A DNA stretch of 64,000 bases from an uncultured Anaerotruncus sp. (GTDB taxonomy: Bacteria; Bacillota; Clostridia; Oscillospirales; Acutalibacteraceae), in the NCBI GenBank assembly GCA_900539775.1, contig UQDL01000001.1:170569-234568 (forward strand). Direction: 5' to 3'. How positions within the stretch are numbered: position 1 is the first letter of the stretch; each line of letters starts with the position of its first letter. A model generated the notes under the pieces. The model saw only the letters and a list, made by a program, of their open reading frames with translations. It ran no database searches and was not told the origin of the DNA. Positions 25,032 through 59,017 of this stretch are shown here, in pieces. Made by a program: the position numbers and the translations under genes.

Positions 25032-25652
25032 TTATTTATTTGATTTGCCTTTAATCTCTTTTGGCTTTCTATTATAGCGCTTTCTGATTTTTTCTTTTTC
25101 TTCCTGCTCTTGCCTTTTGAAAGAAAGATAATAGAGCCAAACAAGAACAGCCACAACAACTGCTGCCAGAACACCTGCGCCTATTTCAAGGCCGGTTTTG
25201 ATTTTATTAACTTTTTGCAAAGCAGCAAAGGTAAAGCCCAAATCAACATGAACGGTGCCTTTATCTTCAGAATAAAAAGTGCCGTTTGAAATATATATTT
25301 TTTCGTGAGAAGTATCGCCGTTCGGATAATAATAATATTTCATTGAATTAAGCACATTGCTTGTTTCGGCATCATAAACAAAATCGGGGTTTTTTTCTGC
25401 ATAGAAAGTGATTCCCGTTACTTCATCCGTAAGCTTAGACGGCACAAACATATTGAAGAGCTTATACTGATTACTGTCTGTAGACATACAGGAAGCAACC
25501 ACTATAAGGGCAATTATTACAACAAAAATCACGGCAACAGCAATGACGCCGCCTTTATTTCTTTTTACCATATCTTTAAAAGACTGTTTTATGATTTGCT
25601 TATCAACAGAAGCGGTTTTTACCGCTTTTTTATTATTTGCCATTAGGCGCAT
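25032..25652 (-). CDS. hypothetical bitopic membrane protein (basic N-terminus, TM, ~120-aa extracytoplasmic domain, TM, Lys/Glu-rich C-terminus)
   Basis: Start chosen at MRLMANNKK, preceded by GGAAAGG. No family recognised. Confidence 0.5.
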   Translation of the reverse strand: MRLMANNKKAVKTASVDKQIIKQSFKDMVKRNKGGVIAVAVIFVVIIALIVVASCMSTDSNQYKLFNMFVPSKLTDEVTGITFYAEKNPDFVYDAETSNVLNSMKYYYYPNGDTSHEKIYISNGTFYSEDKGTVHVDLGFTFAALQKVNKIKTGLEIGAGVLAAVVVAVLVWLYYLSFKRQEQEEKEKIRKRYNRKPKEIKGKSNK

Positions 25653-26260: not shown

Positions 26261-26290
26261 ACAAAAAAAGAGGGCGCCGAAGCGCCCTCC
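26261..26290 (-). terminator. rho-independent terminator closing the minus-strand giant-protein operon (gagggcgc-cgaa-gcgccctc, T-run on minus strand)
   Basis: 8-bp GC stem, tetraloop, 7 A on plus (7 T in the minus transcript). Located 70 nt past the small peptide ORF. Confidence 0.75.
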
Positions 26291-26363
26291 CAAATCTTTC
26301 GATTTAATTTATATATTCCGAGGATATCGTTGCGGGATATCGGAAAATATGTTGCAGAAGCTA

Positions 26364-26463
26364 ATTAGAATTCAATGTAGCCTTCTTCTGTGGATGTTGT
26401 GATAACATCAACAGAGAGGAACTGTTCAACTTCTACAACGGGCTTTGTGTAAACTTCTTTCAT
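26364..26463 (-). CDS. 33-aa acidic peptide MKEVYTKPVVEVEQFLSVDVITTSTEEGYIEF, last cistron of the giant-protein operon
   Basis: Not in the ORF track (<60 aa). GGAGG RBS 8 nt upstream of ATG 26463. Lies between the 880-aa gene stop and the operon terminator. No Cys, net charge about -6. Confidence 0.4.
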
Positions 26464-26534
26464 TGTGAAAGACCTCCGTTTAATTTATGGATTCGGCAGA
26501 GCCTGAACCCTGCCGTAAACATTGCTTAAACTAA

Positions 26535-29105
26535 TTAAGCGCCGAGAGCAGCAGTTTGAGGTTCTGCGTAAATAACCTGTGTTACACCGGCTTTTTCAAC
26601 GATGATGTAAGCACGAGCCGTAACAGATGCAGCTGTTGTCTTAAGAGTAAGAGCGAACTGGCCGTCTGCTGCGGTGTTGCTGTTCTTGTAGAGGTAAGCA
26701 CCGTTGCCTACATTTTCAAGAACGAGAGTTGCAGAATCTGCAACATCCTTACCGAATACGAAACCGGATTCAAGAAGATTGTAATCCTCGGGAACTGAAC
26801 GTGTTGCAAGGAATCTTGCCTTGTTTGCAGCAAGCTTTTCAGCTGCAACTGCAGTTACAACAGGCTGAGCTGTTACAGCGCCTTCAACAAATTCAACATT
26901 AACATCAGCTGTTACGAAGAATGTGTATTCGCTGCCGTAAGCGGCATCCTTGCCGTTAATCTTCCATGTGCCTTCGTTAGCTGCCTTAACAGTTACCTTA
27001 GCATCATGAGAAACAGTTGCCGTTGTGCCCATATCCTGGCCGGCAACAGCAATTGTGCAGCCTTCCGGAGCTGTTACAGTGTAAGAAGCAGCCTCATCCT
27101 TAGAGTAAGAAGCAACTACTGTTGCAGCACCCTGGAGAGCCTTAACTGCATCAAGATCCATGCTCCAGCCCTTGAAGGTGAAGCCCTTATATTCATAAGG
27201 TGTGGGCATTGCATCAAGAGCAGCAACTTCAGTATTGCTCATCTTAGCAATAACATTGTTGAACTGGTCAACGAATGTTACGTTGAATGCCTTAGCCTCA
27301 TCTGCTGCGAATACAGGTGTGTAAGTTACATCTGCGAAAGCAGCAGTTGTGTAAGTTGCCTGGTTAGAAACGAGCTTGCCGTTTACTTCCCAACCAACAA
27401 ACTTAGCGTTTGCAGCAGGAGTTGCGGTGAGGGTGTATTCCTTCTCATAAGCAACCTTCTGAGCTGCGCCCGTTGTAGCCTCGCCGTTAAGAGTTGTTGT
27501 GCCCTTATCGGAAGCATTAACAGTGATCATAACGCCTGTTGCAGGGATAACCTGACCCTTTGCAACAACATCGCCGCAAGCTGCGCATACAGAATCGCCT
27601 GTGTAGCCGTCTTCGCCGCGAGTTGCTTCCTTAGCATTAACGCCTGTTTTGATTTCGCCAACATGGTTGGTCTTATCAATAGGAGTTTGCTGCTGAGCAA
27701 CGATTACAACATTACAATCTGCGCAGTGAGAACCTGCTGTTAAACCGGTTGCAACGCAAGTTGCAGCAACAGCATCGTCTGTTACGATATTTGTATGGTT
27801 GTTAGGATCAAGATCCTTATAATCTGTCTTTGTTTCACCGCAAACACAGCTGTAGTGAATTTCGCCCTTAACTGTGCAGGTTGAATCGGTTTCGCTTGTT
27901 ACAGTCCAAACATGAGCACTTGGATCTGCAGGAATTACCTCGCCGCCTGTGGTGTAGCCGCAAACAGAGCACTTTTGAACAGCTGTTTTACCAGGTGTTG
28001 TGTGAGTTGCGGGAACTGCAGCTTCGGTTTCTACCATTGTATCCGCGCAAGAAACGGTGTTTACTGTTTCGATTTCATCATAGGTTGTTGTGCCTTCAAC
28101 GAAATCCGGCCAAGAATAAGTCTTGGTGGTGTGTTTACCTGCTTTGTCAGATGTTGGTCCGACTGCCGGTGTGTTCTCCGGAGCTGTTGGTGTTTGACCG
28201 GCAGGAACAGTAACAGTTGTGCTCTTGCCGCCAACATAGTTGTAAGTATAAGTTACATCTGTTGAAGTTTCTTCAGGCTGAAGACCCCACTCGGGCATAA
28301 TGAACTGAGTTCTTGGAGAGGGACCTGTAACCATATCATTAAGTGAGTTATAAACAACAAGGTCCTTATCATCAGAGCCGGGAGTTGTGTTAATAAATGT
28401 ATCACCTGAATTTTGTTTAAGAGCAAGTGCCTGAGTTAAATCAACTTCATCTGTCTTCATTTGAAGGCCGAATACTGCAAGCATTTGACCCTTGAAAACT
28501 GAATCGGGATTTTCCGAATCTTGCTGATAAGAATTAGGCCAGGGCTCATGAGGAGTCTTGTTAAGAATAACAGCAAGAGTTTGCTTCATTGCGCAAATAT
28601 TGATACCGCTTGTATCAGAAGCATCAATATCAGTGTTTGAATCTGCCCATGTTGCAAGAACGCAAGACTTACCGGCAGCTTCGCCTGTTGTAAGCTTATC
28701 TCTTTTGCCTGAATAGTTTGCAGGTACAACATCATTGTCTGCAAGACCTTTCGGATAGCTCCAAATCATTGAAAGGCAGTCTGCAGTGTCAACATTTTCA
28801 ACTGTAACAACAAGTGCAAATGTGCCGTCTGCGGAAGCAAGGTCTGACTTTTTCAAATGTTTCAAATCATAAGTCGGAACTTCACCCGCACCATCATGAT
28901 TATCAAAGTAGTTATTTGAGTTGTAGCCCCAAGAATCGGTGCCGTCATAATCCACAACATATGTGTGAACTATTACGTCATCATCGTAACTGTATCTGCC
29001 GTCTGTATTATTCGGGTTCGGAAGTGCGAACGAGGTGAGAGGGAAGCTGAAAGCAACCATCAATACAGAAAGCAAAACAGCCAAAGCTTTTTTCAAGCTT
29101 TTCAT
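26535..29105 (-). CDS. secreted 856-aa protein with central Cys-rich segment and C-terminal Listeria-Bacteroides (Flg_new/InlB B-type) repeats
   Basis: GGAGG RBS and ATG at 29105 (MKSLKKALAVLLSVLMVAFSFPLTSFA, signal peptide). Cys-rich block CSVCGYTTGG...CVCGE...CADCN...CAACGD. Repeats YTLTATPAANAKFVGWEVNGK and YKGFTFKGWSMD. No dockerin or sorting signal. Confidence 0.65.
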   Translation of the reverse strand: MKSLKKALAVLLSVLMVAFSFPLTSFALPNPNNTDGRYSYDDDVIVHTYVVDYDGTDSWGYNSNNYFDNHDGAGEVPTYDLKHLKKSDLASADGTFALVVTVENVDTADCLSMIWSYPKGLADNDVVPANYSGKRDKLTTGEAAGKSCVLATWADSNTDIDASDTSGINICAMKQTLAVILNKTPHEPWPNSYQQDSENPDSVFKGQMLAVFGLQMKTDEVDLTQALALKQNSGDTFINTTPGSDDKDLVVYNSLNDMVTGPSPRTQFIMPEWGLQPEETSTDVTYTYNYVGGKSTTVTVPAGQTPTAPENTPAVGPTSDKAGKHTTKTYSWPDFVEGTTTYDEIETVNTVSCADTMVETEAAVPATHTTPGKTAVQKCSVCGYTTGGEVIPADPSAHVWTVTSETDSTCTVKGEIHYSCVCGETKTDYKDLDPNNHTNIVTDDAVAATCVATGLTAGSHCADCNVVIVAQQQTPIDKTNHVGEIKTGVNAKEATRGEDGYTGDSVCAACGDVVAKGQVIPATGVMITVNASDKGTTTLNGEATTGAAQKVAYEKEYTLTATPAANAKFVGWEVNGKLVSNQATYTTAAFADVTYTPVFAADEAKAFNVTFVDQFNNVIAKMSNTEVAALDAMPTPYEYKGFTFKGWSMDLDAVKALQGAATVVASYSKDEAASYTVTAPEGCTIAVAGQDMGTTATVSHDAKVTVKAANEGTWKINGKDAAYGSEYTFFVTADVNVEFVEGAVTAQPVVTAVAAEKLAANKARFLATRSVPEDYNLLESGFVFGKDVADSATLVLENVGNGAYLYKNSNTAADGQFALTLKTTAASVTARAYIIVEKAGVTQVIYAEPQTAALGA

Positions 29106-29118
29106 TGAATTACCTCCA

Positions 29119-30264
29119 TTAGCTAATAACAGTGTCTGCGTAAGTAATGAGATCAGAGCTATATCCCACAAAAGCAAGATATATCTGCTTATCCTTTGCG
29201 TTTATGGTTCCGTTTCTGTCTATATCAACGCCAACATCATATCCTGCATCAGAAGCCCTTAAGCCAAGAGTGCTTAAATATTTTGATTTATCCTTTGCAT
29301 TGATCATAGTGTTTCCATCCCAATTACAAGCAACAATGCCAACCAAGATTGCGGATTCAACATTGGCATTTTCCACCTTAACGGTGAACGTGCGAGTGAA
29401 GCCGTACTTATAGGAAACCGTTGCCGTGTAAGACCCGGAGGGAACATTAAGAAAAGTGAATTTCCCTGTTTCATCCGTTTCCGCAAACAAGGTTTCGCCG
29501 CCGACTTCAATTGAAACCTGTGCGCCTGTTACGGGATAAGAACCATATTTTTCATTCGGCGAAACTAATGCGCCGATGTATGCAGATACCGAATAGCCAT
29601 TTGATATTTCGGGAGAAAGATCACATTCCATTGGAAAGACCTCTCCCGTGAAATCATCTGCCGTGCTTAAAGCATAGCATTTATAGACACGGGACAAACC
29701 TGAAACGGTTGCATCCCTGTAATCTACTTCTATAAAAGTGCGGTTTGGATTAGTATCTAAGGTTAAGGCAGAATTTATATCAATTGCGGTATCCACTGCG
29801 CTGCCCAACACCGTGAGACTAATCTTAACCAATTCTGCGCCATTATCCGGCAAAACCGAACAAGAATCATAATTGCCCGAATTATAAGCAAACACAAACG
29901 AGCCGTTTGCCGATTCAAGATGAACCGCATTTAAATTCAGGCTGCTGTCTGTTGCAAGCGGCAAAATTCCATTTGAAAAAGACAACACATTTGCATCATA
30001 AGAAGCGGTGAACTGCATTTGAGAAATTGAAGCAAGATCATCAACACGCAGCACCATTTCATATGTGCCGGCAGAAAGCGCATTGCCATCTGCCACATTG
30101 CCGGAAGCATCTCTGTATTCAGCCGTTATAACCGGCTTTTGAGTGCCTATTGAGGAAGTGTATTCCTCTGCCGCTCCGGCAGAAATGCATGATATGAATA
30201 AAGCGCAGGTAAGAACGGATGCCAATGCAACCGATATTATCCTTTTGAATTTTTCGAGCTGCAT
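29119..30264 (-). CDS. cohesin-domain + carboxypeptidase-regulatory-like beta-sandwich + dockerin adaptor protein (ScaC-like scaffoldin adaptor)
   Basis: Signal peptide then a cohesin-like segment (GTYEMVLRVDDLASISQMQFTASYDANVLSF...SFVFAYNSGNYDS...ELVKISLTVLG, compare type-I cohesin FVFRYDPNVLEI...IIVFLFAEDSG). C-terminal GxVxxxxGxPVxGAxVSI (CarbopepD_reg-like), then two Ca-binding repeats NWDGNTMINAKD / DIDRNGTINAKD typical of a dockerin. Confidence 0.6.
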   Translation of the reverse strand: MQLEKFKRIISVALASVLTCALFISCISAGAAEEYTSSIGTQKPVITAEYRDASGNVADGNALSAGTYEMVLRVDDLASISQMQFTASYDANVLSFSNGILPLATDSSLNLNAVHLESANGSFVFAYNSGNYDSCSVLPDNGAELVKISLTVLGSAVDTAIDINSALTLDTNPNRTFIEVDYRDATVSGLSRVYKCYALSTADDFTGEVFPMECDLSPEISNGYSVSAYIGALVSPNEKYGSYPVTGAQVSIEVGGETLFAETDETGKFTFLNVPSGSYTATVSYKYGFTRTFTVKVENANVESAILVGIVACNWDGNTMINAKDKSKYLSTLGLRASDAGYDVGVDIDRNGTINAKDKQIYLAFVGYSSDLITYADTVIS

Positions 30265-30373
30265 TTAATAATTCTCCGTTATTAAAATTTTCGCTTAGCG
30301 CGAATTGCAAGCAGACATTCGGCAGGTTTCCCTGCCGAATGCCTTAATATATTCAGAAGTCAGTTAAACCTGA

Positions 30374-33300
30374 TTATTTAACAGTAACATCTGCATATGT
30401 GATGTCGGTTGTTTTAAGACCTGCAAATGCAAGATAAATTGCCTTATCCTTGGTGTTGATGGTGCCGTTTCTGTCAAGGTCAACGCCAACATCATAGCCT
30501 TCAGCGCCTTCTCTTGTGCCGGCAGCAGCCAAGTAGGTTGATTTATCGTTTGCGTTTACGATTGTGTTACCATCCCAGTTGCAAGCAACGATGCCTACCA
30601 TGGTTGCAGAATTAACATCAGCACCTTTTACGGTGATGGTGAAGGTTCTGTCAAAGCCATACTTATAGGTTACGGTTGCTGTGTAAGTGCCATCCGGAAC
30701 ATTGGTAAGAGTGAACTTACCTGCATCATCGGTGGTTGCGGTAATGGTTTTGCCGTTTGCTTCGATTGAAACAACAGCGCCTGTTACTGCATACTTACCT
30801 GCAGCATCTGTGGGTGCGGACATTGCGCCGATATAAGCAGATACGCTGTGGCCGGTTTCAACAACCGGAGGTTCAGCGGAAGCTTCTGTGAGGCCGTTTT
30901 CAGCAAGCATAAGCTTTTGTCTGATTGAGAAAAGATTTGAAATGCTGAGAGTGTAGCCTTCCTTATCTTCCGGAACATAAGGAGCAAGTGAACCGTGCTT
31001 ATAAAGGCCGGACTGGAAGTTAACAACATCAACTGCATCATCAAGAGCAGTGATGAATGCCTGCCAGCTTGCATCCGAATAGGTTACGCCATCCGGGTTG
31101 GAAGCAGCAGTGTAAGTGTTTGAACCAACAGAATAAGTGTAGTTTGTGGAATCAACATCGATATCAGAAATGCTGAGTGAAGCATCACCTGTGCTGTTTT
31201 TACCTGCAGCAGCGCAGCGAATTTCTTTTTCAAGCTGATTCGGAACATAACCGCGCTCAAGAACCTTAAGCATGTAGTCGTTGAAGTTACGACGAGCTTC
31301 TATAAGGGCGAAGTTTGAAGCGGTTGATGTAACAACTGATTTAGCGAAATCAACAGTTGCAACAAGATCTCTGTAAGTGAGGTGAGTGCCGTTCTGTGCA
31401 TTGTAAGCAGCAAGAGCATCATCCTTCTTGGAATCAACTGTGCCGAATGCATTAACAGTTTCACCGGACTGATCAGTGTAAGTATAATTTCTGTAAAGAT
31501 CAATATTGATAAGTGATTCGGCATCACGGCCTGCAGTAGCCATCTGCTCATACTTAACAACATCAAAGTTTACACTTTCAAGGCCGTTTCTAAGAACATA
31601 AACGTCGTTATAAACGTCCTGAGCAGCACCAACGTTAAGGCCTGCATCAAGAATTTCTCTTGCATAAGTTACCTTATCGTTTACAGCAGCAACAGTGCCT
31701 CTTGTGGTTGCACCGGGAACGATTTTGTTTTCTGTATTTGCATACATAACAACCCATTCATCGGAAGCGGTAACAGCCTTGTTGTTGGCATCATTGTGTG
31801 TGTATTCAACAGCATTGTAAAGAAGATTGCCGGCGCTGTTCTTAAGCTGAGTTGTGGTTGTTGTAAGATACGGAGCTTCAAAATAAGGAGCTGTGCCGGA
31901 TCCTGCATCCTTCCACTCGGTTTCATAAGCGGCATCATTAACCAAATGCCATGCACCTTCAACCTTAACAACCTTTACGCCTGTTGATTTAACAGTGCTA
32001 ACAGGAAGGTCTGTTGCAGAACCGTTAACCATTACGGAAACGGTTTCAGTAGTTGCGGAAACATCAGAATCAGTGATCTTGGTGTTGCCGTAAATCGGGT
32101 TAGCATATACTTCTTCACCGTTTGCATCGGTGTAATGAGTAAGATAGTATACGCCATCCTTAACGATTGCAGAAGCCTTAAGGCCTGCAAAGTTTGCAGC
32201 GCTCATAACATCTGCTGTTGCAGGAGCATAAGCCAATTCGCCCACAACGTTAGTTGTGTTTGAAGTTTTTGCAAAGTTTGCTTTCTGAGAGCCGAGCTTG
32301 CCTGCGTTATCAGCGGTAAAAACGGTTGCAGTTGTTGCAAGAGCCTGCATAACTGCTTCTCTGTAGTAATCATAGTGCTGTGAAGGCTTAACATCAGCTG
32401 ATGAATAGTCATTCAAGAATGCAGCACCGGTGTTGTAAAGAGCTTCTGAAGTTGATACATCGGAAAGATCGCTGACGATAAGATTTGTTACGAGGTCGAA
32501 TCCCTTATTTGTTACAACACGGAATTTAACATCGCTGCGGCCCTGCTTAACACTGTTTTGCTTATCCCATTCGATGAAGTTCATCTTGCCGGTTGCAGGC
32601 ATTGAACCCGGGTTGAATGAGAAAACAAGGCCCTGGCAACCTGTGGAAGCAGAAGCGCTTGCCTTGTTGCCCTTATTGATAGCCGAGCTGTAATCGCCCG
32701 AGCCGTTTGTTGAAACATAAACGCAGTTATAAGAACCGTCGTTATTTCTGTCTGCAAGGATTGTTGCAGGAGTGAATCCGTTTACACCGGAAGTTGTGAT
32801 TGCATCATAAGAGCAAACAACGTGCTGCCTGCATTCGGGAACTGTGTTATCGGTTGCAACAAGGTTTACAGCGTCAGCTCTGCTGAGAAGCTTATCTGCA
32901 GCTGTTACCCAAGCGCCCTTAGGATTACCGTTTTCATCATAAACGATATTCTTAATTTCAGTGCCGTCTTCAAGCTTTTGAACGGTGTACTCATATTGAT
33001 AGTAATCATACCAATCTGTGTTTACAAGATCACCTGTTGCAGGGTTGCAGGCTACGGCAACATATTCTTGACCGCCTACAGTGATGTAAGCTTCAAATCT
33101 CATGTTTGTGCCTGCGTTCTTAACCATGTAAGCAGTTGAATTTACAGCAGCTTCAGGTGCTGCGGTTGAAACAGCGATATTGTTGGGAACAACAATAAAG
33201 TCGCCCTTTCTGGAGTTACCGTTGATAAAGTTAGTTGAGGTGGATGTTGCGCCTTTCTTATTAGCAGCGGTAATATTATCAACGAAGCCGGTTGTTGAAG

Positions 33301-36300
33301 AATTATATGTTTGAGAATAAAGATCCTTCTCTGCAGATACATAGTAGTTCATTGTTCTGCTGAAATCTTTTGCATATTCGGAAGAATAAGCCTGACCGGA
33401 TTCATTAACGATTTGATATGTAACAGTGAATGTTACTGCGGTTGCGTTTGCAGATCCAAGATCGCTTGCCGAAAGTGAACCCTTAACGCCGATGGAACCT
33501 CTTGCCTCAGGATCGAGGGTGGCGGAAGTGTCGCCTGTGAAGGTCCATGTGCCCTTATCAGCCTGAACGCTCTTGATCTTGATCCAAGAACGGCCGAGGC
33601 GCTCGGTAGAACCGTCTGTCAAAATTGTGAAACGGTTGATACCTTTACCAAGGTTTTCAAGGTTGATAGTGTTTTGAAGTTCGCTGCCTGCTGTGTAGCC
33701 GGTTGTTGCATTTGTTGCAAGCTTGGAATCAAGGTTGCCTACCTTATAGCTTTGAAGCTGAGGAAGGAAGCCGTTAACAAAGTTTGCAACTGCCTGAACT
33801 GCGAACATTGCACCCTTCCAAACAGTGTCCGGATAGGTGGTAAATACGCCTGCAAACTGAACAAGGTTTACAATAGCGCTTGAAAGAACGCCGAAGTTAG
33901 AAGCGTCGCTTGAAGTACCTGCAATAACGCTGCTCTGAACAAGGGTGTGGAACGGCTTATTAGCATTTTCGCCGGTTGCATCCGGGATAATGTTTTTGCC
34001 ATACAGCGGCTGATTCTTGCTGCGTGCATTAAGGAGGCCGTTCAAGAGCTCTTTAAGAACATCATAAACCGTAAGGTCTACGCCCTTAGTTGCAATTGAA
34101 GGAGCGTTAATGATTGTTGCAAGTCTGTAAACGAAGTTTGTTACACCGCCGAGCTGCTCGCCGTCTACTTCGTGAGTGCTTGCAATATTAAGGGCGCCTG
34201 TTACAACATCGTCCATAATAAGTGCATAAGAATCGCACTGGCCGCGCTTTGCTGCGCTGCCGAACTGAAGTTCGCCGATAACGGGAAGAAGCTTGTTTGC
34301 GATGATATCAATATTCTTCCAAAGGGTGTTATCAAGGGTAATTAAGCTGTTACCCGAATTATCCGAACAACCAAGGAGAGAAGCAACACCCTTATCGTTT
34401 GCATAGTATGCAATTACGGAATTAAGGATGCTGAAGATATCTGTGCCTGCTGCAACCTGCTGTTCGTATGTTTCAACGCCCTTAACATTATAGATGCTCC
34501 ATGCGCTGCCCTTTTTATCGGTAATCGGAACATATTGCATCATAACATAGCCGACTGCATCACGGCACATTGCATAAATGCTTTCCATGGTTACATCATA
34601 ATAACCGTCTGAGCCAACAGTAACGAACTGAGAATAGTCGTTCTGAGGAAGAATATATGCAAGATGCTCTTGAAGGATAATTCCTGCAACGCCTTCAGCG
34701 TCGTCACATTTATCCCACTTATCAAGGTGGATCGGTTTAAGATCCTTAATATTGTTTTGGAGGCAAGCAATAAGAAGCGGAATCATTGCACCTTCGAGAT
34801 TAGACTCTGAAAGAGCAGCAGATTCACCGTTCTTTTGATAGAAAGAAGAAAGGATGTTCTTATCGGTTGCATCGCCAACATACTGGATAACCTTGAGTGC
34901 ATTGGAAACAAGAGTTTTACCAATTGTTTTAGCGTCATTTGTGTTGATCTTCTGAAGTGAAGATGCGCCTGAATAATCAGGTAAGAAATCCTTAACAGCT
35001 GCGATAAGGAAATCATTGAGGCCGGCAAGAATGTTATCATAATTGCCGTAATCATTTGCCATGAAGCTATCAAGGTTTGAGGTGCCGGTGCACTTAAGGT
35101 TTGTATTAAGAGGACCGGTTTCGCTCTTGAAGTAATAAACCATGAGCGGGCTTCTGCGCAGCTTGTTGAAGAGCTGAGTAGAATCAATATCTCTCCAATT
35201 GTTATGAGCGTCTGCTACAGCGCTTCTGTCAAAGGTGAGATTTGCCTTAACCTGATCAAGATCAAGCTTATATTCCTGAGCCCATGCCTTAACATTTGCT
35301 TCGGAATAGTTGTTTGCGGGATTTGAATAATCCCAAGTTTTGCCCTGGCCGAGGAACCACTGAACGTAATCCCAGTCATAATCGGCTATGGCGTTGTTCA
35401 AAAGCCTGAGAGTAGGCTGAAGAACGGTTTTCCAAGCAATGCCCAAAGCATCATAAGAGAACTTGAAGAGCGATGTGCCCGGAGTTAATGTAAGATTTGC
35501 ATCATCTGCACCGTCGCCGTTTGAATCATACTGGAAGAGATAAACATTTCCGTCCGGTGTGTAGCAAAGGCCGGGGTCTTTTTGGCCGGCAGCAAAGCGG
35601 GATTGAGAGCTTGTGCCGTCTGCATAAGTTACATTAACATTGATCTTCTTGAGGAGCTCATCCTGCAAAGATCTGAAAAGCATGGTATCAAGATCATAGC
35701 CTGCTTCGTTGTTATACATCTTAGTGGCTTCATCACTTGTGTACCATGTGGTAGACTCGGTGAGGAGTTTTACAATAATATTGTATACAAGGTTTTTCTC
35801 ATAGCCGTCTTTCATACCAAGCTTTGCAGCATTGTTAAGGATGCTGTAAAGGTTAAGGTTAAGAGGCAGGCTTAAAGTACCTCTGAGAACCTGGTTAATA
35901 ACAGCGTGGCCGCCGTCCCAGTTAGAAACATTGTTATAAAGAACATTCAAAATGGCTTTAACAATGCTCTTTGCAGAGTTATTAGCTCTGTAGTCCTTGC
36001 CGCAAGCCGGATAGCCGCCGTCTACCTTAGTGTAAGACAATCCTGCAAGAGGGCTGAGAGTAATGTTTTTAAGATCCTTACCCAAGCCGTTTGCCTGATC
36101 AACAGTTGGCTTCAGCTGATCAACTATATCAAGAAGACCGCTGACACTGTCAAGAGTACCGTTCAAATTAACGGAAACTACAACGTAGTTGCCGCTTAAT
36201 GAAACCGGCATTTTAAGATCATAGAGGATGTCGTCCAAATAATCAAGAAGAGCTGCACAGGTTTGCTCGTCATTAAGCTCAACCCAAGCCAAAGCATTGG

Positions 36301-36433
36301 CTTTAAGCGCTTCATCGTGATATTTGGGGTCGGAAGAGGCTGCGAAAGCAGAAAATGCGCCTGAAAATGCGGTGAGCGCCATTACTGCTGCAAGAAACAA
36401 AGCAAGCAATTTCTTGCCAAATTTTGTTTTCAC
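30374..36433 (-). CDS. giant (2020-aa) secreted dockerin-bearing protein with no recognisable catalytic domain
   Basis: GGAGG RBS then 7 nt then GTG at 36433 (VKTKFGKKLLALFLAAVMALTAFSGAFSAFAASS, signal peptide). The ORF track extends upstream to 36547. The C-terminal ~150 aa match the C-terminus of the 381-aa adaptor (CarbopepD_reg-like plus dockerin NWDGNTIVNAND / DLDRNGTINTKD). Confidence 0.7.
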   Translation of the reverse strand: MKTKFGKKLLALFLAAVMALTAFSGAFSAFAASSDPKYHDEALKANALAWVELNDEQTCAALLDYLDDILYDLKMPVSLSGNYVVVSVNLNGTLDSVSGLLDIVDQLKPTVDQANGLGKDLKNITLSPLAGLSYTKVDGGYPACGKDYRANNSAKSIVKAILNVLYNNVSNWDGGHAVINQVLRGTLSLPLNLNLYSILNNAAKLGMKDGYEKNLVYNIIVKLLTESTTWYTSDEATKMYNNEAGYDLDTMLFRSLQDELLKKINVNVTYADGTSSQSRFAAGQKDPGLCYTPDGNVYLFQYDSNGDGADDANLTLTPGTSLFKFSYDALGIAWKTVLQPTLRLLNNAIADYDWDYVQWFLGQGKTWDYSNPANNYSEANVKAWAQEYKLDLDQVKANLTFDRSAVADAHNNWRDIDSTQLFNKLRRSPLMVYYFKSETGPLNTNLKCTGTSNLDSFMANDYGNYDNILAGLNDFLIAAVKDFLPDYSGASSLQKINTNDAKTIGKTLVSNALKVIQYVGDATDKNILSSFYQKNGESAALSESNLEGAMIPLLIACLQNNIKDLKPIHLDKWDKCDDAEGVAGIILQEHLAYILPQNDYSQFVTVGSDGYYDVTMESIYAMCRDAVGYVMMQYVPITDKKGSAWSIYNVKGVETYEQQVAAGTDIFSILNSVIAYYANDKGVASLLGCSDNSGNSLITLDNTLWKNIDIIANKLLPVIGELQFGSAAKRGQCDSYALIMDDVVTGALNIASTHEVDGEQLGGVTNFVYRLATIINAPSIATKGVDLTVYDVLKELLNGLLNARSKNQPLYGKNIIPDATGENANKPFHTLVQSSVIAGTSSDASNFGVLSSAIVNLVQFAGVFTTYPDTVWKGAMFAVQAVANFVNGFLPQLQSYKVGNLDSKLATNATTGYTAGSELQNTINLENLGKGINRFTILTDGSTERLGRSWIKIKSVQADKGTWTFTGDTSATLDPEARGSIGVKGSLSASDLGSANATAVTFTVTYQIVNESGQAYSSEYAKDFSRTMNYYVSAEKDLYSQTYNSSTTGFVDNITAANKKGATSTSTNFINGNSRKGDFIVVPNNIAVSTAAPEAAVNSTAYMVKNAGTNMRFEAYITVGGQEYVAVACNPATGDLVNTDWYDYYQYEYTVQKLEDGTEIKNIVYDENGNPKGAWVTAADKLLSRADAVNLVATDNTVPECRQHVVCSYDAITTSGVNGFTPATILADRNNDGSYNCVYVSTNGSGDYSSAINKGNKASASASTGCQGLVFSFNPGSMPATGKMNFIEWDKQNSVKQGRSDVKFRVVTNKGFDLVTNLIVSDLSDVSTSEALYNTGAAFLNDYSSADVKPSQHYDYYREAVMQALATTATVFTADNAGKLGSQKANFAKTSNTTNVVGELAYAPATADVMSAANFAGLKASAIVKDGVYYLTHYTDANGEEVYANPIYGNTKITDSDVSATTETVSVMVNGSATDLPVSTVKSTGVKVVKVEGAWHLVNDAAYETEWKDAGSGTAPYFEAPYLTTTTTQLKNSAGNLLYNAVEYTHNDANNKAVTASDEWVVMYANTENKIVPGATTRGTVAAVNDKVTYAREILDAGLNVGAAQDVYNDVYVLRNGLESVNFDVVKYEQMATAGRDAESLINIDLYRNYTYTDQSGETVNAFGTVDSKKDDALAAYNAQNGTHLTYRDLVATVDFAKSVVTSTASNFALIEARRNFNDYMLKVLERGYVPNQLEKEIRCAAAGKNSTGDASLSISDIDVDSTNYTYSVGSNTYTAASNPDGVTYSDASWQAFITALDDAVDVVNFQSGLYKHGSLAPYVPEDKEGYTLSISNLFSIRQKLMLAENGLTEASAEPPVVETGHSVSAYIGAMSAPTDAAGKYAVTGAVVSIEANGKTITATTDDAGKFTLTNVPDGTYTATVTYKYGFDRTFTITVKGADVNSATMVGIVACNWDGNTIVNANDKSTYLAAAGTREGAEGYDVGVDLDRNGTINTKDKAIYLAFAGLKTTDITYADVTVK

Positions 36434-37021
36434 AATTTTTACCTCCGTGAAAATTTTTAAACGCAATGAAGTTTCATTCATAAAATGTTCACACACCGAC
36501 TCTCTGACCCATGGGCAATCCACACAGAGCGGAAGCGTGCGTTGCAACGCCTCAATGCGAACAGATATTTACAAAAGCGAATACTACTCCATTCATTAAA
36601 TATTAAAACACAAGGCAAAACAAAAGTCAATATTAACAAAGGCGAAACGGCTTTTTCGGCGTTTTTGACGAAATTGTAAACGGCAATTTGTGCAAAATAA
36701 ACACCGAAAAATTTACAATTTGTTCATACATTTCTTACAGAAAATTTACTTTGTAACAACTTCGTAACCCTTTACAGAGGGTAGTTTTCGTAAATGTGAA
36801 GCCCTTTACACAACAACATATTGTATATTTTTTTGCAATTTTTTTCAAAATTCAACAATTCAAAAAAGGCTGTTTGCTTGACCTGAAGCAGTCCGCTTTT
36901 TCGGCTTTTTTTATGCAGGCGTAACGAAAGACAAACCATTTTTTGTTTCTTTTTAGGGGATGATTTACATATGAGCGTTCATTTTTGTTCACAGTTTGTT
37001 AAAGATTTCAAAAAAAAGGTG

Positions 37022-37050: not shown

Positions 37051-37210
37051 TATATTGTATTGTTCGTGCGCGTGGGTATTTTGCGCCCTGCGGGCATGTT
37101 TGTTAATGATTTATTCACAAATTCATTAACAAATTTTCCCCGAGCAGTTGCCTGTGCGCTTACAGAGGGCATGTTTTATGTTCCCAAATCATAAAAAAGG
37201 AGAGATGATT

Positions 37211-40200
37211 ATGAAAACGAGCAAACGATTACTCAGCCTTCTCTTGGCTGTGGTAATGGTGATAACAACTTGTTCAGTCGGCATGAGTGCTTTCGCGGCC
37301 GATAAGAACGATGATGTTTTCACCTATGTTACCGATGAGGGTAAAGCGGTTGATATTACATACGAATCGCTTAACAACCTTATCAACACCTACGCTCCCG
37401 AAATCATTAAGCTTCTCGGCGATAAGCTTACCGGTCTCGGTGTTAACGTAGATGAAGTTTGTGCTTCAGATAAGCCGATTTACGAGCTTTTGGCACAACT
37501 TTCTCCGGCGCTCATCAAGCTCATGGGCAGCAGCTCTGTTACCGATGAGGTTATCAAGGACATTCTTCTTGATGCCGGCATTATCGGAGACGATGTTGCA
37601 GAATCAGATCAGCTTGATGCCGTAAAGTTTGCATATGTTCAATATGCTTACCTTAATGATGCGGCAGCACCGATGAGCATCTGGAACCTTTATCAATTCT
37701 GCATGGATAATGAAAAAGCAGATGATAAAGATTTAAAGAACTACTGCAAAGATACCAAGGCTGTTCTTATTGATTTGCTTAAAGCTTTCGATGAAGCCTT
37801 CACAGTTGCAAAATTATCTGTTGACTCAGATTTCGCAACGGTTGAAGAGTATGTAAGAACTCAGGTAATCGGCGGCAGTCAGTTTGAAGAAAACGAATTT
37901 GCAGTTAACAATAAGGTTGATTACTTTGCACCTTATCTTTTAAGTGCTTCCTGCTACACGGCAGATGATGCCGGCAAGCTTGCAGAGGCTCTTAACGCAG
38001 GACTCAGCGGATCAATCACAAAGATTCCCGCTTCGCTTGCAAACGCAAAGGATGTTGTTGCACAGGGCAACGGCTTCAGCGGCAAAAAGCTTAGCGAAAT
38101 CAATGCTTCAAGTGATGCAAATGTTGCCGCATTCATCAACAAGGTTGTTTCACTTTGTAAAGCAGTTAATGCTCCTATCAGCGAAAACCCGTCACTCGGC
38201 GAGGCTGCATTCTGGTATTACAATCAGCCTATCAGAAGCAAAAACGCCACTCTCACTGCTGTTTTAACAAATCTCAGCGGCGAAGCAATAACAGTAAGCG
38301 ACGGCGGTATCACCACCTTTACTGTTCAGCCGGGCGAATATTTCTATGATGTATGTAAGCAAGAAGACCTTACATATGATGTATTTGCAGGTTTAACCGG
38401 CGGTGTATTCCCTGCAGACGCTGCAACGGATTCATTCTACTATGCGCTTTATGAAACCAGCTTTGTTTGGTCTGATAACATTTTTGATGTTTTCGGCTCA
38501 GTACCTTCGGAAGACGAAGCAACAAAGTGGATGTTCCAAAGCGAATTCACCGCAGAGGATTTCACAGCCATTAAAAACAGAGTGGCAGATTTGGTTGCCG
38601 CAAAAGGTATAGTAAAGCCCGCAGAAACAAAGGAAACAGATTTCCTTAAAGAGCAGGCTGCAAAGATTACAGAAGAAGAATTTATAAACGGTGTTGGTTC
38701 TGTTCCCGCTGTTACGGCAGACGGCAGATTCTCAAACTTCCTTAAATTCTATTTCTTAAACGAAGTATTCTCAAGTGTTCCGCTTGCAGAAATTGCAGGA
38801 TGGGACGGTGCAGAGGAAACCATCAGCGATGCCATGAAGGTTGCAGGAACTCACGCAGCCAACATCATCAGAGGCTATTCTGAATTTACACTTTCAAAAG
38901 CCGTTGTTCCCACTATTTCGGCAGCATATAAATGGGATGACGTTAAGCCGTCAGACAAACTTGCAATCGAAATCGTTAACAACAACATCAACGGCTATGT
39001 TGATTATGTAAGAAAAGGCATCCCCGGCGTTAACATCAACATATATGCAATCGCAAAGGACATTATTGCAAACCTTACCGATTCGCTTACATTGGATACA
39101 CTTCTTGAAAAAGTTACAGACATTTACAAGAAGCTTGCAGAAGACCCGGTTAAGACCATATTTGAACTTGTTCCCGTAATCGTTGTTGTTCTTGACGATG
39201 TACTTGTTCCGCTTCTCTTTAACCAAGACGGTCCCGACGAAGCAGATATGTATTACGGCCAGATCAACGGCATTGTTGCAAACCTGCTTAACGAGAAAAA
39301 TCTTACTCAGTCAACAGGCAGCACCGTGGGCATCGGCAAAATCGGCTGGAACCTTAATGAAGTTCTTCCCACATTGCTCCACTGGCTCAACGGCGATAAC
39401 AGCTACACCTATACCTATTATAATGTAGACACAACAAACCCGGACAAATATATTTACAACACACCTTCAACAGGCGCTTTCGGCACTAAGTATGATAATG
39501 ACGGTAAAGAGCTTAACCATGTTCCCGTTATTCTTAACATTTATGCCGTTGATAAGGCTCTTGCGGCCGCTTCCGCTTCAGACCTTACAAACGGCAAGGA
39601 TGACATGCTTAAAGAGCTTCTTGCTTCCGTTATGAACCTTGCCGTTGAAAATGTTGACAATTATGTTGCAGAGCACGGCAACGATGTTGGCAAATATATT
39701 GTTGGCCAAGACGGCACAAAGCAAATAGTATTCAGAGGATTAAACAATGTGCTTGTTGCTCTTCCAAGCATCATCAGCAACATTGGCGAATCATTCCTTG
39801 CTCAATTCGATGTTCCGAGCGATTGGAGCTTCGGCGAATTTAAAACAGATGCAAACGGTTGCAAATACAATGTTTCCGCAAAAGAATTCAAAGATCTTTG
39901 CAAAAACAATTCACCTGCATCTGAAGTGCTTAAAACATTTGTTGATATGTTCGTTAACAACTGGTTTAACGCACTTACCGATTTCTTAAACGATGTTGTT
40001 TCAACAAACAACACAATCACAACCAAACTTCCTGTTGTTGCTTCTCTTCTTCAGGCTCTTGACCTCTTCGGCGAAACAAGTATTCTTACCGATGCGCTCA
40101 ACGGCTTCTTCCTTATGAACAGAGAGCACAAGGATTCATTCACATTTGAGCCTCAGCCAAACGGCTATGTTGGCATCAGCACACTTTCCGCTTACTTCCT

Positions 40201-43200
40201 TCTTTGCAATGTTGAGCCGCTTGTAACATTCATTATGAGCGTTGTTAACGCAAATAAGGGCACAACAGACGGAAATACGGTTTCACTTGCATCACTCGGA
40301 AACGACTTTGTTGCTCAGGCAGCGGCAAATGATGTTCTTGATTCAATTGATATCAACAAAATTACAAAAGAATATTCAAACATTGTTTCCGACAGCGAAA
40401 ATGTTAAAGCTGCGGACGAATTATTAGATGCAGTTGACGAACTTCTTTCAACTCTCCTTTCTAACACATATATTGACGGTTTCACCGCAGATAAGGCAGA
40501 CGGTATCCTTTCCGCCGCAGTAACATTCCTTGTTAATCACTTTGGTGTTGACACTGCAAACGATATCCTTGATCTTGTTATGCAGTATGTTAAAACAATC
40601 AATGAAGGAAATGTTGCAACAGGCAACGGTTCGGTTGATGCCAAGAAGGTTTACTGCAAAGAAAACCTTTCAAACCTTGTTACACAAACCTATGTTCTTG
40701 CCGAAACAATTATTGACAGCCAGCTCAATGTTAAGGGCGACACCAATAAGCTTGTAAACAGCGCAATCAAGGGCATTATTTCCCCAAGCGCCATTGCTGT
40801 TCGCTCTGATTCAATCAACAGCAAGATCATGAAAGAGCAGAGCTGGACCGATCTTTCGGCAACCGGTTATGCAAAAGACCTTGGCTACAAAAACCTTGTT
40901 GCAGGCGATAAGAACACCTTCTTTAAAGATCTTATTGACTCACTCGGTGTTATTCCGGCAGTATTAGGCACAGTTCTTTGTGCAACAGGCTACTACAACG
41001 ATGTATTAAGCCCGATTCTTTCGGATGTTTGCGGCAATCTTGAAGTTTCTTACACAAGAACTCTTTCAGCCAATGCAAACGGTAAAGATGCAACATTCGC
41101 AGTTATTGATGTTGTTTCCAAGATTTTAAACAAAGTGCTTGAGGCTCCCGCTTCTTCACTTCTCGGCTTAATCAGAGGCCTTGCTATTAACTTTACAGAC
41201 GATAAGTTCGGCGTAACGGTTAAGGCAGCGGTTGCTCCGATTACAAACGAAATCAACGGTGCTGCTTCAATAGTTTCAACGCTTTCACCGTCACTCGGCG
41301 AAACAGTTTCCGGCTATGCAACACTTGTTAATGATTTTGTTAACACCAACATTCTTAAAGAAGACAATTACTTTGTTAACACAATCAATGCTATTCTTAC
41401 CGCTGTAGGCAAGGATGCAATTGACATTGATCTTAACTCATTGCTTGCTCTCGTTGGCAACACATCAAATGCAGAGCTTCTGCTTCTTGTTTACACTGTA
41501 GGCGTAAGCGTTATCACAAACAGCTCACTTCTCAGTTCATTGCTCAACGGCAAGTATCCCGGACTTGTTGATATGATTTCTAAGCTCTCTCCGAGCAAGC
41601 TTCTCACAATCATCAAAGAGGTTATCGCATCAACACAGAATCCTAAGGAAATCGTTTGGACCTTCACTAACTACGCTGCTCAGGCAAGCAACACATTCTC
41701 TTATCCCAAGGGAATCACAGCAACAGATGCCAACAACGCAGTAAGCAGCCTTGACGATCTTGTTAAAAACCTCTTCCCGCTTCTCAAGAGCTTCGGCGTT
41801 CTTGATGCAAACGGACTCAATGATATCATCAACGACAATCTCTTCACAAATGCTCTTATCACAAGCATTGCAACAGGCGTTTACGGCGCAATCGAAAAGA
41901 GCGTTGATCTTATCTCCCCTGCCGACCTTGCAGAATATCTTACAGATGCAAGCTACGGCGCAACTTACACATCTGCAGCCAACACACTTAAGGGCTGCGC
42001 TAAGTGGAGCGATGTTAAATCAGTTAACTGGGGCTTCACAGACGGCTCTTCTTCTGCACAGCAGGGCTTCGTTAATGCACTTGCAGCTCTTTGCAGACCT
42101 GTAAACGACATTGTTGCAGCTCTTCTTGCAGGCGGCGATGTTAACATCGGCGAGCTTCTTCAGTCTGTTCTTGATAAGCTTGAAATCAACACAACAACTT
42201 ATTCCGGCGACGTTAGAATTAAAATTTCTCTCAACAACAACATTCTTAATGTTGAGACATATAACACCGCTGCAACAGATGCACAAACAAACACCATTAA
42301 GGTTAATCTTAATGACATAATCGCTCAGCTTAAAGAGCTTGGCATCAAGGGCGGCAACGGCTACGAAAGCGCAATCGTTCCCCTTCTTGAAGCTCTTATG
42401 TGCGATAACATTAAGACTCCTGCTCAGTATCTCAACGATTATAAGAAGGCTAAGGATAACCTCCTTATCAACATTCTTAATCCAATCATCGGTTTCGTAA
42501 ACAAAGTTGCAGACAAACCGTTTGACACTCTTACGGCTGTTCTTCCGAACCTTGCTTACTTTATCGACAATAACGGCCTCGGCCAATTCCTTGATAACTT
42601 GCTTTCACCCGTTACAGACATCGTTAAGGTGCTTGAAAAGAACGGTGTAAGCGTAGACACAATCATTTCTGCAATTGCAGGCAAGTCACTTCCCGATCTT
42701 ATCGGCGGCCTCATCGGTGCAAACCTCAGCGGCCTTGATTTAAGAATCGGCAACCTTGCAAACTGCAACATTCAGGATTACCTTGCAGACATTATCAATG
42801 CTGTTCTTAAGAGCAACAATCTCAACATCAAGATCAGCAAGATTGATTTTGCATTCCTTGCAAGCCTTGGCGATCTTAACACAGTTTACGGCGCAGCAGG
42901 CACAACAAAACAAATCACAGCCAACCAAGGCCAGGTGCTTGTTACATTGCTTCGCTACATCGAAAATGTGCTTATCAACAACGCTTCTGCTATCAACAAG
43001 CTTCTTGGCGGCATTGATGCAATCAAGAAAAATGCAACAATAGGCGGCATCCTTGACAGCGTATTTGCAACAATTGCAACAGCTAACAGAGACGATATTG
43101 TTCTTGCAATTTTCTACTTCCTTCTTGCTCAGCCAACAGACACATTCTTTGATTATTCAAACTTCAAATACAAGGAATATCCGTTTGAATATCCTTCAAC

Positions 43201-44919: not shown

Positions 44920-44948
44920 TTGACAATACTCAATATATTGAGTATAAT
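44920..44948 (+). promoter_or_regulatory. consensus sigma-A promoter TTGACA-17-TATAAT with embedded perfect 20-bp palindromic operator
   Basis: ttgaca atactcaatatattgag tataat. The palindrome ATACTCAATAT/ATATTGAGTAT spans 44926-44945. A degenerate second half-site ttcaatatattgggtat lies at ~44956-44972. Confidence 0.6.
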
Positions 44949-45010
44949 GATATATATTCAATATATTGGGTATGCATATGCATATTATTTTTTGATAAAA
45001 GGAGAAAATT

Positions 45011-45547
45011 ATGTATTGTAAAAATTGTGGTAAGCCGATGAATGATAATCAGGCAATCTGCTTGAATTGCGGCGTAAATGCCGGGTGCGGCAATAAATTT
45101 TGCGCAAACTGCGGAGAGCCGGTGAACGAAAACGCCGCCGTTTGCACGCATTGCGGCGTTGCAATCAAAAAAATCGCACAGCCCCAAGCTGGTGCGGTTT
45201 TGAGCAAAGAAGAGGCATATAAAAAGCTTGCCGAATACGAAAAAACAGCGGCAATCATTTGGTTTGTTATAGCCGCGCTGCAAATTATCGGCGGCATATT
45301 TACCTATTACGCCCCTGTTCTTGTGGGTTGCTGGAATATTTACACGGGAATTCAGCGCATCAAACACAGCAAAACCCTTGCCGATATGCCTGCCGGAATA
45401 TATGAGTATTATGAAAAGCAAGGCACAACAAATATCATTTTCCTTGTTGTTAATATTATTTTGGGCGGACTCATCGGCGGTATCGCCTCGGGTTATGATA
45501 TTTATATCAGAAACTTCGTTATGAAAAACAAAGAAGCATTTGAATAA
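45011..45547 (+). CDS. double zinc-ribbon membrane protein (two CxxCG...CxxCG ribbons plus two or three C-terminal TM helices)
   Basis: AAAGGAG RBS. MYCKNCGKPM...CLNCG and FCANCGEP...CTHCG. Hydrophobic AAIIWFVIAALQIIGGIF and IIFLVVNIILGGLIGGIASG. Confidence 0.65.
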   Translation: MYCKNCGKPMNDNQAICLNCGVNAGCGNKFCANCGEPVNENAAVCTHCGVAIKKIAQPQAGAVLSKEEAYKKLAEYEKTAAIIWFVIAALQIIGGIFTYYAPVLVGCWNIYTGIQRIKHSKTLADMPAGIYEYYEKQGTTNIIFLVVNIILGGLIGGIASGYDIYIRNFVMKNKEAFE

Positions 45548-45551
45548 CGCA

Positions 45552-48336: not shown

Positions 48337-48337
48337 T

Positions 48338-58986: not shown

Positions 58987-59017
58987 GCCGACGTACACGA
59001 AAACGGAGGTAATGCAA

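Follow-up and report, generated by a model that had tools for sequence, protein, structure and literature searches.

Cohesin-dockerin pairs are textbook parts of cellulosomes and a favoured connector in synthetic biology, and in the toxin complexes of Clostridium perfringens a cohesin-dockerin system docks toxins and sialidases. Here we analyzed a 64-kb stretch of contig UQDL01000001.1 (the whole stretch is called the window below) from an uncultured gut Oscillospirales bacterium related to Eubacterium_R of GTDB. Four consecutive, co-oriented open reading frames (ORFs) on the minus strand, between 26.26 and 36.43 kb, encode a giant secreted protein of 2019 amino acids (aa), a 381-aa adaptor, an 856-aa secreted protein and a 32-aa peptide, and a gene for a 2,422-aa secreted protein is transcribed divergently from them. 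On balance, comparison of the sequences favours a self-contained, non-catalytic cohesin-dockerin surface assembly formed by the products of this operon and of its divergent neighbour, in which the 856-aa protein would be the base scaffoldin and its cohesin the socket for both dyads of X-module and dockerin (XDocs) that the operon encodes.

The closest described arrangements are the C-terminus of Clostridium (Acetivibrio) thermocellum CipA (CohI9-X-DocII) with its receptors, the type II cohesins in SdbA and OlpB, and the XDoc of A. cellulolyticus ScaA with ScaB (structures 3kcp, 4fl4, 2b59 and 4u3s), which have the same order of cohesin, X-module and dockerin. The XDoc dyad is homologous to the one found here in sequence profile and fold, and in those systems it acts as the plug by which a large structural protein is fastened to a base protein. 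Unlike in CipA, there is one cohesin here rather than nine, no carbohydrate-binding module (CBM), and no enzyme docked in the window. In contrast to the receptors of CipA and ScaA, no SLH or sortase anchoring is seen in the presumed receptor, which is so divergent that it was missed by Pfam and by sequence searches of the PDB, and the presumed plug and socket are polymorphic within species.

A second parallel is the CttA-ScaE pair of R. flavefaciens and R. champanellensis, in which a non-catalytic XDoc protein is likewise anchored by a cohesin for adhesion (PMC5301203, PMC5429695, PMC7456326). ScaC of the ruminococci, which are also gut Oscillospirales, is likewise a small monovalent adaptor with cohesin and dockerin that changes specificity. 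However, CttA attaches to cellulose via known modules and ScaE has a sortase anchor, whereas the cargo here is a 2019-aa protein without known fold and no anchor signal was found; the genes moreover differ from those of both CttA-ScaE and ScaC in their arrangement as a compact operon, accompanied by a conserved peptide and another giant. The amylosome of R. bromii (PMC4611034) and the mucinolysome of Limousia (PMC12997984) likewise extend cohesin-dockerin systems of gut Clostridia beyond cellulose and use small scaffoldins with one or a few cohesins, but they dock enzymes (amylases and mucin-active glycoside hydrolases, respectively), whereas the present locus has no detectable catalytic domain. 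Cohesin families of ruminococci that keep the fold and had escaped sequence-based annotation were found only by structure (PMC13463774); they belong to Ruminococcus cellulosomes and, likened by description only, are a precedent for the N-terminal domain proposed here for the 856-aa protein.

The locus is built from parts known from two sources, type II anchoring of an XDoc by a cohesin (CipA-SdbA, ScaA-ScaB, CttA-ScaE) and small adaptor scaffoldins (ScaC). What would be new is an unexpected wiring and a balanced specificity polymorphism, for both of which the evidence is real but not yet decisive. Within the available 64 kb, the locus fails the defining features of a cellulosome, amylosome or mucinolysome, having neither a dockerin-bearing enzyme nor a recognised SLH or sortase anchor. 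In the literature searched, no report dealt with cohesins or dockerins of Eubacterium_R and its relatives, and we found no description of this system or of cohesin-dockerin specificity alleles within a species.

Modules of the operon products

The three large products of the operon and their modules are located as follows.

30374-36433, minus strand: giant secreted protein, 2019 aa, with a GTG start at 36433 seven bases behind GGAGG
30599-30865, minus strand: X-module of the giant, aa ~1857-1945, a prealbumin/CarboxypepD_reg-like β-sandwich (CarboxypepD_reg 29.9 bits, sub-threshold)
30377-30598, minus strand: dockerin of the giant, aa 1946-2019, allele type 1, with two calcium-loop/helix repeats, NWDGNTIVNANDKSTYL and DLDRNGTINTKDKAIYL
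29119-30264, minus strand: monovalent adaptor scaffoldin, 381 aa, with signal peptide, cohesin, X-module and dockerin (from the ORF, Pfam, and a structure model with Foldseek)
29665-30147, minus strand: cohesin module of the adaptor, aa ~40-200 (Pfam Cohesin, PF00963, 22.8 bits against a cut-off of 24.1, E 1e-4)
29122-29610, minus strand: XDoc of the adaptor, with X-module aa 219-305 (CarboxypepD_reg 34.2 bits, above cut-off) and dockerin aa 306-381 (NWDGNTMINAKDKSKYL / DIDRNGTINAKDKQIYL)
26535-29105, minus strand: 856-aa secreted protein, candidate base scaffoldin, with an ATG at 29105 behind GGAGGA and a signal peptide
28281-29021, minus strand: its N-terminal domain, aa ~29-275, a cohesin-like β-sandwich, hypervariable between strains
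27546-28058, minus strand: four Cys/His-rich repeats of ~40 aa (H..C..CxxC), aa ~350-520, predicted from sequence and model to be small β-hairpin units
26538-27545, minus strand: Ig-like/InlB-B-repeat-like domains and a conserved C-terminal β-sandwich, aa ~521-856 (Foldseek matches to Ig-domain chains)

The giant consists of a signal peptide (aa 1-31), a body of ~1,825 aa and the C-terminal XDoc. No recognisable domain was found in the body; in the whole giant Pfam sees the X-module alone, and the matches of the giant family profile in the PDB were confined to XDoc structures. A search with the first 1,200 residues among 1.84 billion representatives recovered 98 clusters, nearly all of 1,900-2,250 aa, and no relatives of the body were detected outside these ~98 clusters; judged by these sequences, the family is narrow and uniform in architecture. 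These Pfam and PDB profile searches bear out the original prediction made for this DNA from its letters, which had described the giant as a secreted, non-enzymatic protein with a C-terminal β-sandwich and dockerin as its sole recognisable part.

The C-terminal modules of the giant and the adaptor share 63% identity over 163 aa, and at the DNA level the two tails form a direct repeat (29169-29589 and 30424-30844, spacing 1,255 nucleotides (nt)). Dockerins were recognised by two tandem loop-helix repeats of ~22 residues with the pattern D/N-x-D-x-N/D-G-x-I-x-x-x-D, and such calcium-loop repeats are present in both proteins (NWDGNT(I/M)(V/I)NA(N/K)D... and D(L/I)DRNGTIN(T/A)KD...). The giant family profile aligned with the XDocs of CipA and ScaA (4u3s_B, E 2e-18; 3kcp_A, 5e-18; 2b59_B, 1e-17) and also matched the type I dockerins 2y3n_B and 2vn5_B. 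Similarly, a profile of 34 adaptor orthologues matched 4u3s_B (A. cellulolyticus ScaA, 1.4e-13), 2b59_B (C. thermocellum CipA, 1.7e-11), 3kcp_A and 5k39_B (a C. thermocellum XDoc chain, 7e-7), with type I dockerins matched more weakly. The domain search proposed with the original prediction gave a divided result. In the proteins of the window, Pfam Dockerin_1 (PF00404) had no match at E<=0.1 in the giant or the adaptor and Cohesin stayed below its cut-off, whereas Dockerin_1 was matched by 14 of the 34 adaptor orthologues and by the remote giant-family members P0303 and P0314, and PF00963 by 10 of the 34 (best E 1.5e-5). The XDoc and the cohesin are identified because of these family-level Pfam matches, the profile matches to solved XDoc structures and the predicted fold. 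The nearly identical C-terminal module that had been noted on both proteins can accordingly be specified, on sequence grounds, as an X-module with a type II-like dockerin, homologous to the XDocs of CipA and ScaA.

An AlphaFold2 model of the adaptor (predicted local distance difference test, pLDDT, 74) shows two sandwiches, one of them a multi-stranded β-sandwich, and a tail made of two helices, with blocks at pLDDT 80-93. The best Foldseek matches of this model were the CipA CohI9-X-DocII structures 4fl4_C (E 1.3e-15) and 3kcp_A (E range 1e-15 to 4e-14), followed by isolated XDocs (template modelling scores of the XDoc chains 0.54-0.62) and by the cohesins of R. flavefaciens ScaC, OlpC, SdbA and CipC. 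The Foldseek probability was 1.0 for CipA CohI9-X-DocII and for the cohesins 5lxv_A, 4dh2, 2b59_A, 1g1k_A and 4ums, and the matches included 2w1n and 2jh2, cohesin modules of C. perfringens. By model and matches, the adaptor cohesin resembles the nine-stranded jelly-roll β-sandwich of solved cohesins, as had been expected of the cohesin candidate. The protein is secreted and non-catalytic and carries a cohesin and, at its C-terminus, a dockerin, which is the makeup of an adaptor scaffoldin. As modelled, it is a Coh-X-Doc adaptor with the architecture of the CipA C-terminus; Foldseek, the Pfam matches of the orthologues and the XDoc profile matches all agree with the cohesin-dockerin adaptor claimed earlier.

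The ORF of the third gene comprises 880 codons from a TTG, and the ATG at 29105 is a plausible start that yields 856 aa. In an AlphaFold2 model built with 45 homologues (pLDDT 80), residues 40-270 form a β-sandwich of about nine main strands at pLDDT ~90. Hhalign aligned the N-terminal region (aa 2-243) with the signal peptide and cohesin of the adaptor at E 4e-7 and a probability of 93%; after removal of the signal peptides a weak match was kept (116 columns, E 3e-4, probability 39%), and four controls gave E 0.2-0.36. The N-terminal domain had no Pfam match, and the profile of the 856-aa family gave 0 matches in the PDB at E<=10. We consider this domain likely to be a divergent cohesin. The Cys/His columns of the four repeats that follow are invariant in the 45 homologues, and the repeats are probably zinc-ribbon-like spacers, metal binding being suggested by their sequence. 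Flg_new_2 reached 20.7 bits (cut-off 23.6) on the 856-aa protein, and the distant homologues P0232-P0240 pass PF09479/PF18998. Of the earlier description of this protein as Cys-rich with Flg_new repeats and no anchor, the repeats and the lack of a recognised anchor stand, and the N-terminal cohesin-like domain had been overlooked. In two distant loci a second copy of the C-terminal part lies downstream of the peptide gene (L017, 5628-6719; L018, 15755-16846).

Allele types of the dockerins and of the 856-aa N-terminal domain

Alignment of the adaptors showed that both dockerin repeats of each protein share the residues at the recognition positions and that these residues vary by lineage. The dockerins of giant and adaptor carry identical recognition residues in every related locus where the motif scan recovered both, and the two XDocs therefore point to a common partner.

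We next set the window against loci with adaptor and 856-aa variants of the same species. In strains whose giant is 98-100% identical over ~1,900 aa, only three patches differ from the window: the C-terminal ~70 aa of the giant, the C-terminal ~75 aa of the adaptor (joined in one of the three types by part of the X-module) and the N-terminal ~330 aa of the 856-aa protein, where DNA identity is 53-70%. The ~900 bp between the patches of giant and adaptor, which encode the adaptor cohesin and most of the X-module, are unchanged, and the cohesin is 98-100% identical across dockerin types within a species.

When 11 loci were compared, the giant body, the adaptor cohesin and the C-terminal part of the 856-aa protein sorted into three species backgrounds (A, B and C), and the two dockerins and the 856-aa N-terminal domain sorted into the same three types in all 11. 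Types 1-3 are all present in species A and B, and two types in species C. Partial Mantel tests over 14 loci, with giant-body distance controlled, gave correlations of r 0.82-0.90 among the three modules (p 2e-4), and r between the adaptor cohesin and either dockerin was ~0.14 and not significant. The adaptor cohesin follows the species phylogeny and co-varies with neither XDoc, which fits cohesin and dockerin specificities that differ. The three modules are always inherited as a matched set, and this suggests selection to keep the interface cognate.

Within species A, synonymous divergence (dS) is 0.01-0.03 in the backbone as against 0.9-1.7 in the three modules, where the ratio of nonsynonymous to synonymous divergence (dN/dS) is 0.25-0.4. 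Alleles of the same type from different species have diverged about as much as the species themselves. Because of this and of the high dS of the modules, the allele types appear to be old and common to several species, with no recent burst of positive selection. In comparison with loci L030, L032 and L034, the C-terminal 510 aa of the 856-aa protein (26538-28070) show a dS of 0.17 between species A and B, whereas dS of the giant body is 0.79, which suggests recent recombination between species inside the operon.

Proposed assembly and alternative explanations

A self-assembling extracellular complex, as anticipated in the original prediction, would be the natural reading of the cohesin and dockerin parts encoded in the operon. 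In the assembly that we favour, the mature 856-aa protein would begin with a divergent cohesin of ~250 residues that captures both XDocs, as co-variation and weak homology suggest, and the Cys/His repeats and Ig-like domains would act as a stalk. This cohesin would hold either the giant directly or the adaptor, and the adaptor, when bound, would offer a second cohesin, invariant within species, for recruiting a further ligand. Socket and both plugs would exist as at least three old allele types kept across three species. By analogy with the XDoc-anchored CttA of ruminococci, the complex would present giant binding or coat proteins and not enzymes, and its most likely use would be to adhere to particles, to mucus or to other cells. 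For the human gut, one report describes an XDoc-cohesin pair that anchors a cellulose-binding adhesin under shear (PMC7456326).

Several points weigh against this assembly. The adaptor dockerin adjoins the 856-aa N-terminal domain, and their co-inheritance could reflect a single recombination tract; only the giant dockerin is set apart, with the ~900 conserved bp in between. Nor are the 11 loci independent samples, and the Mantel p-values ignore shared allele ancestry. The assignment of the N-terminal domain as a cohesin is not conclusive, a Foldseek search of the PDB with the whole 856-aa model having returned only Ig-domain chains (antibodies, ROS1, pilins) that are uninformative for this domain. 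One 856-aa cohesin would also have to serve two competing XDocs. No SLH, LPXTG, CWB or sortase anchor was recognised in any component with Pfam, NCBIfam or by reading the C-termini, which leaves surface attachment unexplained, and adhesion is proposed by analogy only because the giant body has no detectable fold relative.

The alternative that survives best, which we consider unlikely, is that the three modules co-vary as the most exposed epitopes or receptors of one surface structure under pressure from phages or host antibodies, or hitch-hike on recombination tracts, and that the dockerins have as their true partner not the 856-aa N-terminal domain but an unlinked polymorphic cohesin. Old alleles with the dN/dS observed are a pattern typical of balanced surface antigens, and the contiguity of the adaptor dockerin with the 856-aa N-terminal domain, the gene flow between species seen in the C-terminal part of that protein and the inconclusive cohesin assignment would all be in keeping with it. 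However, the changes hit the canonical cohesin-contacting positions of both dockerin helices with the internal repeat symmetry kept, and the giant dockerin patch, separated by species-typical sequence in all three species, is never mismatched; moreover, the best profile match of the 856-aa N-terminal domain is the cohesin of the operon itself.

The wiring of the original prediction, in which the giant XDoc binds the adaptor cohesin and the adaptor XDoc binds a primary scaffoldin, appears improbable; that scaffoldin, primary or anchoring, would be encoded elsewhere, and the 856-aa protein would be an unrelated co-expressed surface protein. This wiring is disfavoured because the adaptor cohesin stays when the dockerins change: the recognition helices of the giant dockerin are replaced between strains without a matching change in the cohesin, the partial correlation between them is not significant, and the co-switching of the 856-aa N-terminal domain is left unexplained. 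Such a wiring would follow the classical logic of ScaC/ScaB-type adaptors, given that the adaptor has a bona fide cohesin and XDoc, and as the operon encodes no recognised anchor an unlinked anchoring scaffoldin is plausible. The adaptor cohesin might recognise conserved parts of the XDoc; yet the common partner to which the shared recognition residues point would, if it were this cohesin, make the adaptor bind itself.

That the locus provides the framework of an ordinary complex for displaying enzymes, similar to a cellulosome, amylosome or mucinolysome, with the adaptor cohesin recruiting dockerin-bearing carbohydrate-active enzymes encoded elsewhere and the giants as accessory substrate binders, is very unlikely, since, although gut Oscillospirales cohesin-dockerin systems usually display enzymes (PMC4611034; PMC12997984), the adaptor cohesin still has no assigned ligand and GH28, GH31 and a carboxylesterase are encoded in the same window, a six-frame motif scan of the 64 kb found only the two XDoc dockerins, none of these hydrolases carries a dockerin according to Pfam, and no enzyme domain was found in the best 120 of 133 adaptor matches listed, which are adaptor-length proteins or shorter fragments, or in two remote giant-family members that bear a dockerin on the same giant architecture. 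In line with the original prediction, Pfam and NCBIfam detected no glycoside hydrolase, CBM or known adhesin domain in the operon products. NCBIfam gave nothing meaningful for all five products of the locus, and no catalytic domain was detectable in their ~5,700 aa.

If the 856-aa protein is the base scaffoldin for both XDocs, the allele types could further amount to a lock-and-key polymorphism, in which at least three ancient trans-species sets, each of one cohesin and two dockerins, are held by balancing selection and giants assemble only on cells or base proteins of matching type. We put this forward tentatively, as a possible extension. Such sets would be the counterpart, made of cohesins and dockerins, of kin or self-recognition or of escape from phages or antibodies with compensatory change at the interface, and the ~4,400 aa of giant cargo would then represent folds and a function without described relative. 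The locus belongs to a common, uncultured human-gut Clostridia species, has no enzymes attached and would mount two of the largest proteins of a ~2-Mb genome. The proposed wiring, if true, provides an entry point to the giant proteins of Eubacterium_R and the coprostanoligenes-related group and would add a cohesin family that is invisible to Pfam, and the three matched plug-and-socket sets, differing only at the interface, would make a clean system for the evolution of cohesin-dockerin specificity.

Operon boundaries, distribution and neighbouring genes

The remaining features of the locus and its surroundings are the following.

26268-26291, minus strand: intrinsic terminator closing the operon, with a 10-bp stem of which 7 are G-C pairs, GGGAGGGCGC-TTCG-GCGCCCTCTT, then TTTTTGT
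26365-26463, minus strand: 32-aa acidic peptide MKEVYTKPVVEVEQFLSVDVITTSTEEGYIEF, encoded by the final gene of the operon, whose GGAGG lies 9 nt upstream
36820-36848, minus strand: candidate sigma-70-type promoter, TTGAAA-17-TACAAT (consensus scan, 10/12 matches)
37208-44479, plus strand: 2,422-aa secreted protein, divergent from the operon
25032-25652, minus strand: 206-aa protein with two transmembrane helices and strongly basic tails on the cytoplasmic side, just past the operon terminator, with a promoter-like site of its own
51185-51258, plus strand: tRNA gene (Rfam)

Gene calls on independent metagenome contigs gave exactly 2019, 381, 856 and 32 aa. The length first given for the adaptor is therefore retained, and those of the giant (2020), the third protein (880) and the peptide (33) are each corrected to these values. 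The intergenic gaps are 109, 13 and 71 nt in operon order, and in sister strains the stop codon of the adaptor overlaps the start of the 856-aa gene. This layout and the conserved gene order described below lead us to infer that the four genes are co-transcribed, and they support the operon where it had been predicted. The terminator claimed at 26.27 kb was recovered as a G+C-rich hairpin followed by a T run (26291-26268). The promoter lies ~390 nt upstream of the giant gene, in a 715-nt divergent intergenic region with the 2,422-aa gene on its other side, and is regarded as a candidate only because promoter-like sites in the scan were not in excess of those in shuffled sequence. Over the whole window, Rfam matched the single tRNA and gave no match in the long 5' leader.

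The exact adaptor sequence was found in 273 indexed blocks of public assemblies and confirmed on 23 of 23 long contigs read. Adaptor-bearing contigs reach 0.4 Mb among the matches listed, and the flanks always hold the same housekeeping genes (aro operon, GH28, peptidase M20). Relatives at 43-51% identity are assigned to 'uncultured Ruminococcaceae', Ca. Eubacterium faecale and Ca. Eubacterium faecavium, the second of which corresponds to Eubacterium_R sp000431535 in GTDB (PMC8035907). Gene order is conserved in >25 related loci. A tblastn survey of 19 related loci, from sources that include rumen, chicken and Hadza metagenome-assembled genomes (MAGs), recovered the order giant, adaptor, 856-aa gene together with the divergent 2,422-aa gene in nearly all loci with sufficient contig, and the peptide in 16; the order persists down to ~25-30% identity. 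On a closed MAG chromosome (L009, CP091724.1; 10001-13733), the adaptor and 856-aa genes are each split into several frames, which probably reflects indels of the long-read assembly and not pseudogenes.

Orthologues of the 32-aa peptide occur at the same position in 13 distant loci with the consensus MKExY(T/S)KPvvEvExFxxvDvxTxS and an acidic tail; the core M-K-E-x-Y-x-K-P is invariant and GGAGG precedes every copy. Relative to the sister species L007, a metagenome bin whose adaptor is 71% identical, there are 7 nucleotide changes and 1 amino-acid change in 27 codons (dN 0.016, dS 0.435). These comparisons mark the peptide gene as genuine and subject to purifying selection, with a conserved, cytoplasmic product. 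The peptide has no signal peptide, no match in Pfam or NCBIfam, and its family profile gave 0 matches in the PDB. The leader-like motif KP...F...DV..T.S had raised the idea of a precursor of a ribosomally synthesized and post-translationally modified peptide, which was set aside because the tail has no Cys and the locus no maturase gene.

Of the 19 related loci (L007-L025), 17 have the gene for the 2,422-aa protein in this place, and the remaining two, L017 and L020, are short contigs. From this conservation the protein is a member of the same locus; the four-gene operon of the original prediction holds, and this divergent member had been missed. The protein has no dockerin and no domain match in Pfam or NCBIfam, and its best PDB profile match, a cephalosporin acylase at E 0.055, is at chance level. 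A highly conserved module of ~270 aa (..GYESAIVPLLEAL..NPI.GFVN...PF.TL...LPNLAYFIDNNGL..) occurs in it twice. The signal peptides of the giant (36344-36433, minus strand; ..KKLLALFLAVVMALTAFSGAFSAFAA), the 856-aa protein (29022-29105, minus strand; ..KKALAVLLSVLMVAFSFPLTSFA) and the 2,422-aa protein (37208-37300, plus strand; ..KRLLSLLLAVVMVITTCSVGMSAFAA) are alike and nearly invariant across orthologues that are 30-50% identical elsewhere, a resemblance that suggests a specialised export or localisation signal. The two giants were also considered as paralogues; BLASTP and two hhalign runs found the signal peptide as the sole region in common (hhalign probability 77-88%), and the idea was dropped for that reason. 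The signal peptide of the 2,422-aa protein has an invariant Cys (TTCSVG here, LTACSVG in relatives) that could belong to a lipobox, non-canonical in the window.

An orthologue of the 206-aa protein was found in 7 of the 19 loci with tblastn and, at this position, in 6 of 19 with blastp (L007, L008, L009, L011, L013, L015). The protein might partner the complex or the acidic peptide in the membrane, and its membership in the system is uncertain. Elsewhere in the window, four ORFs of 233-696 aa have no Pfam match (6058-8148 and 44930-45796 on the minus strand, 388-1239 and 48293-48994 on the plus strand). A separate putative surface-protein cluster at 56858-62488 (plus strand) comprises genes for a TetR regulator, for a protein of 475 aa bearing collagen triple-helix repeats and for a protein of 1,171 aa in which a pectate-lyase-like adhesive domain is combined with three Flg_new repeats.

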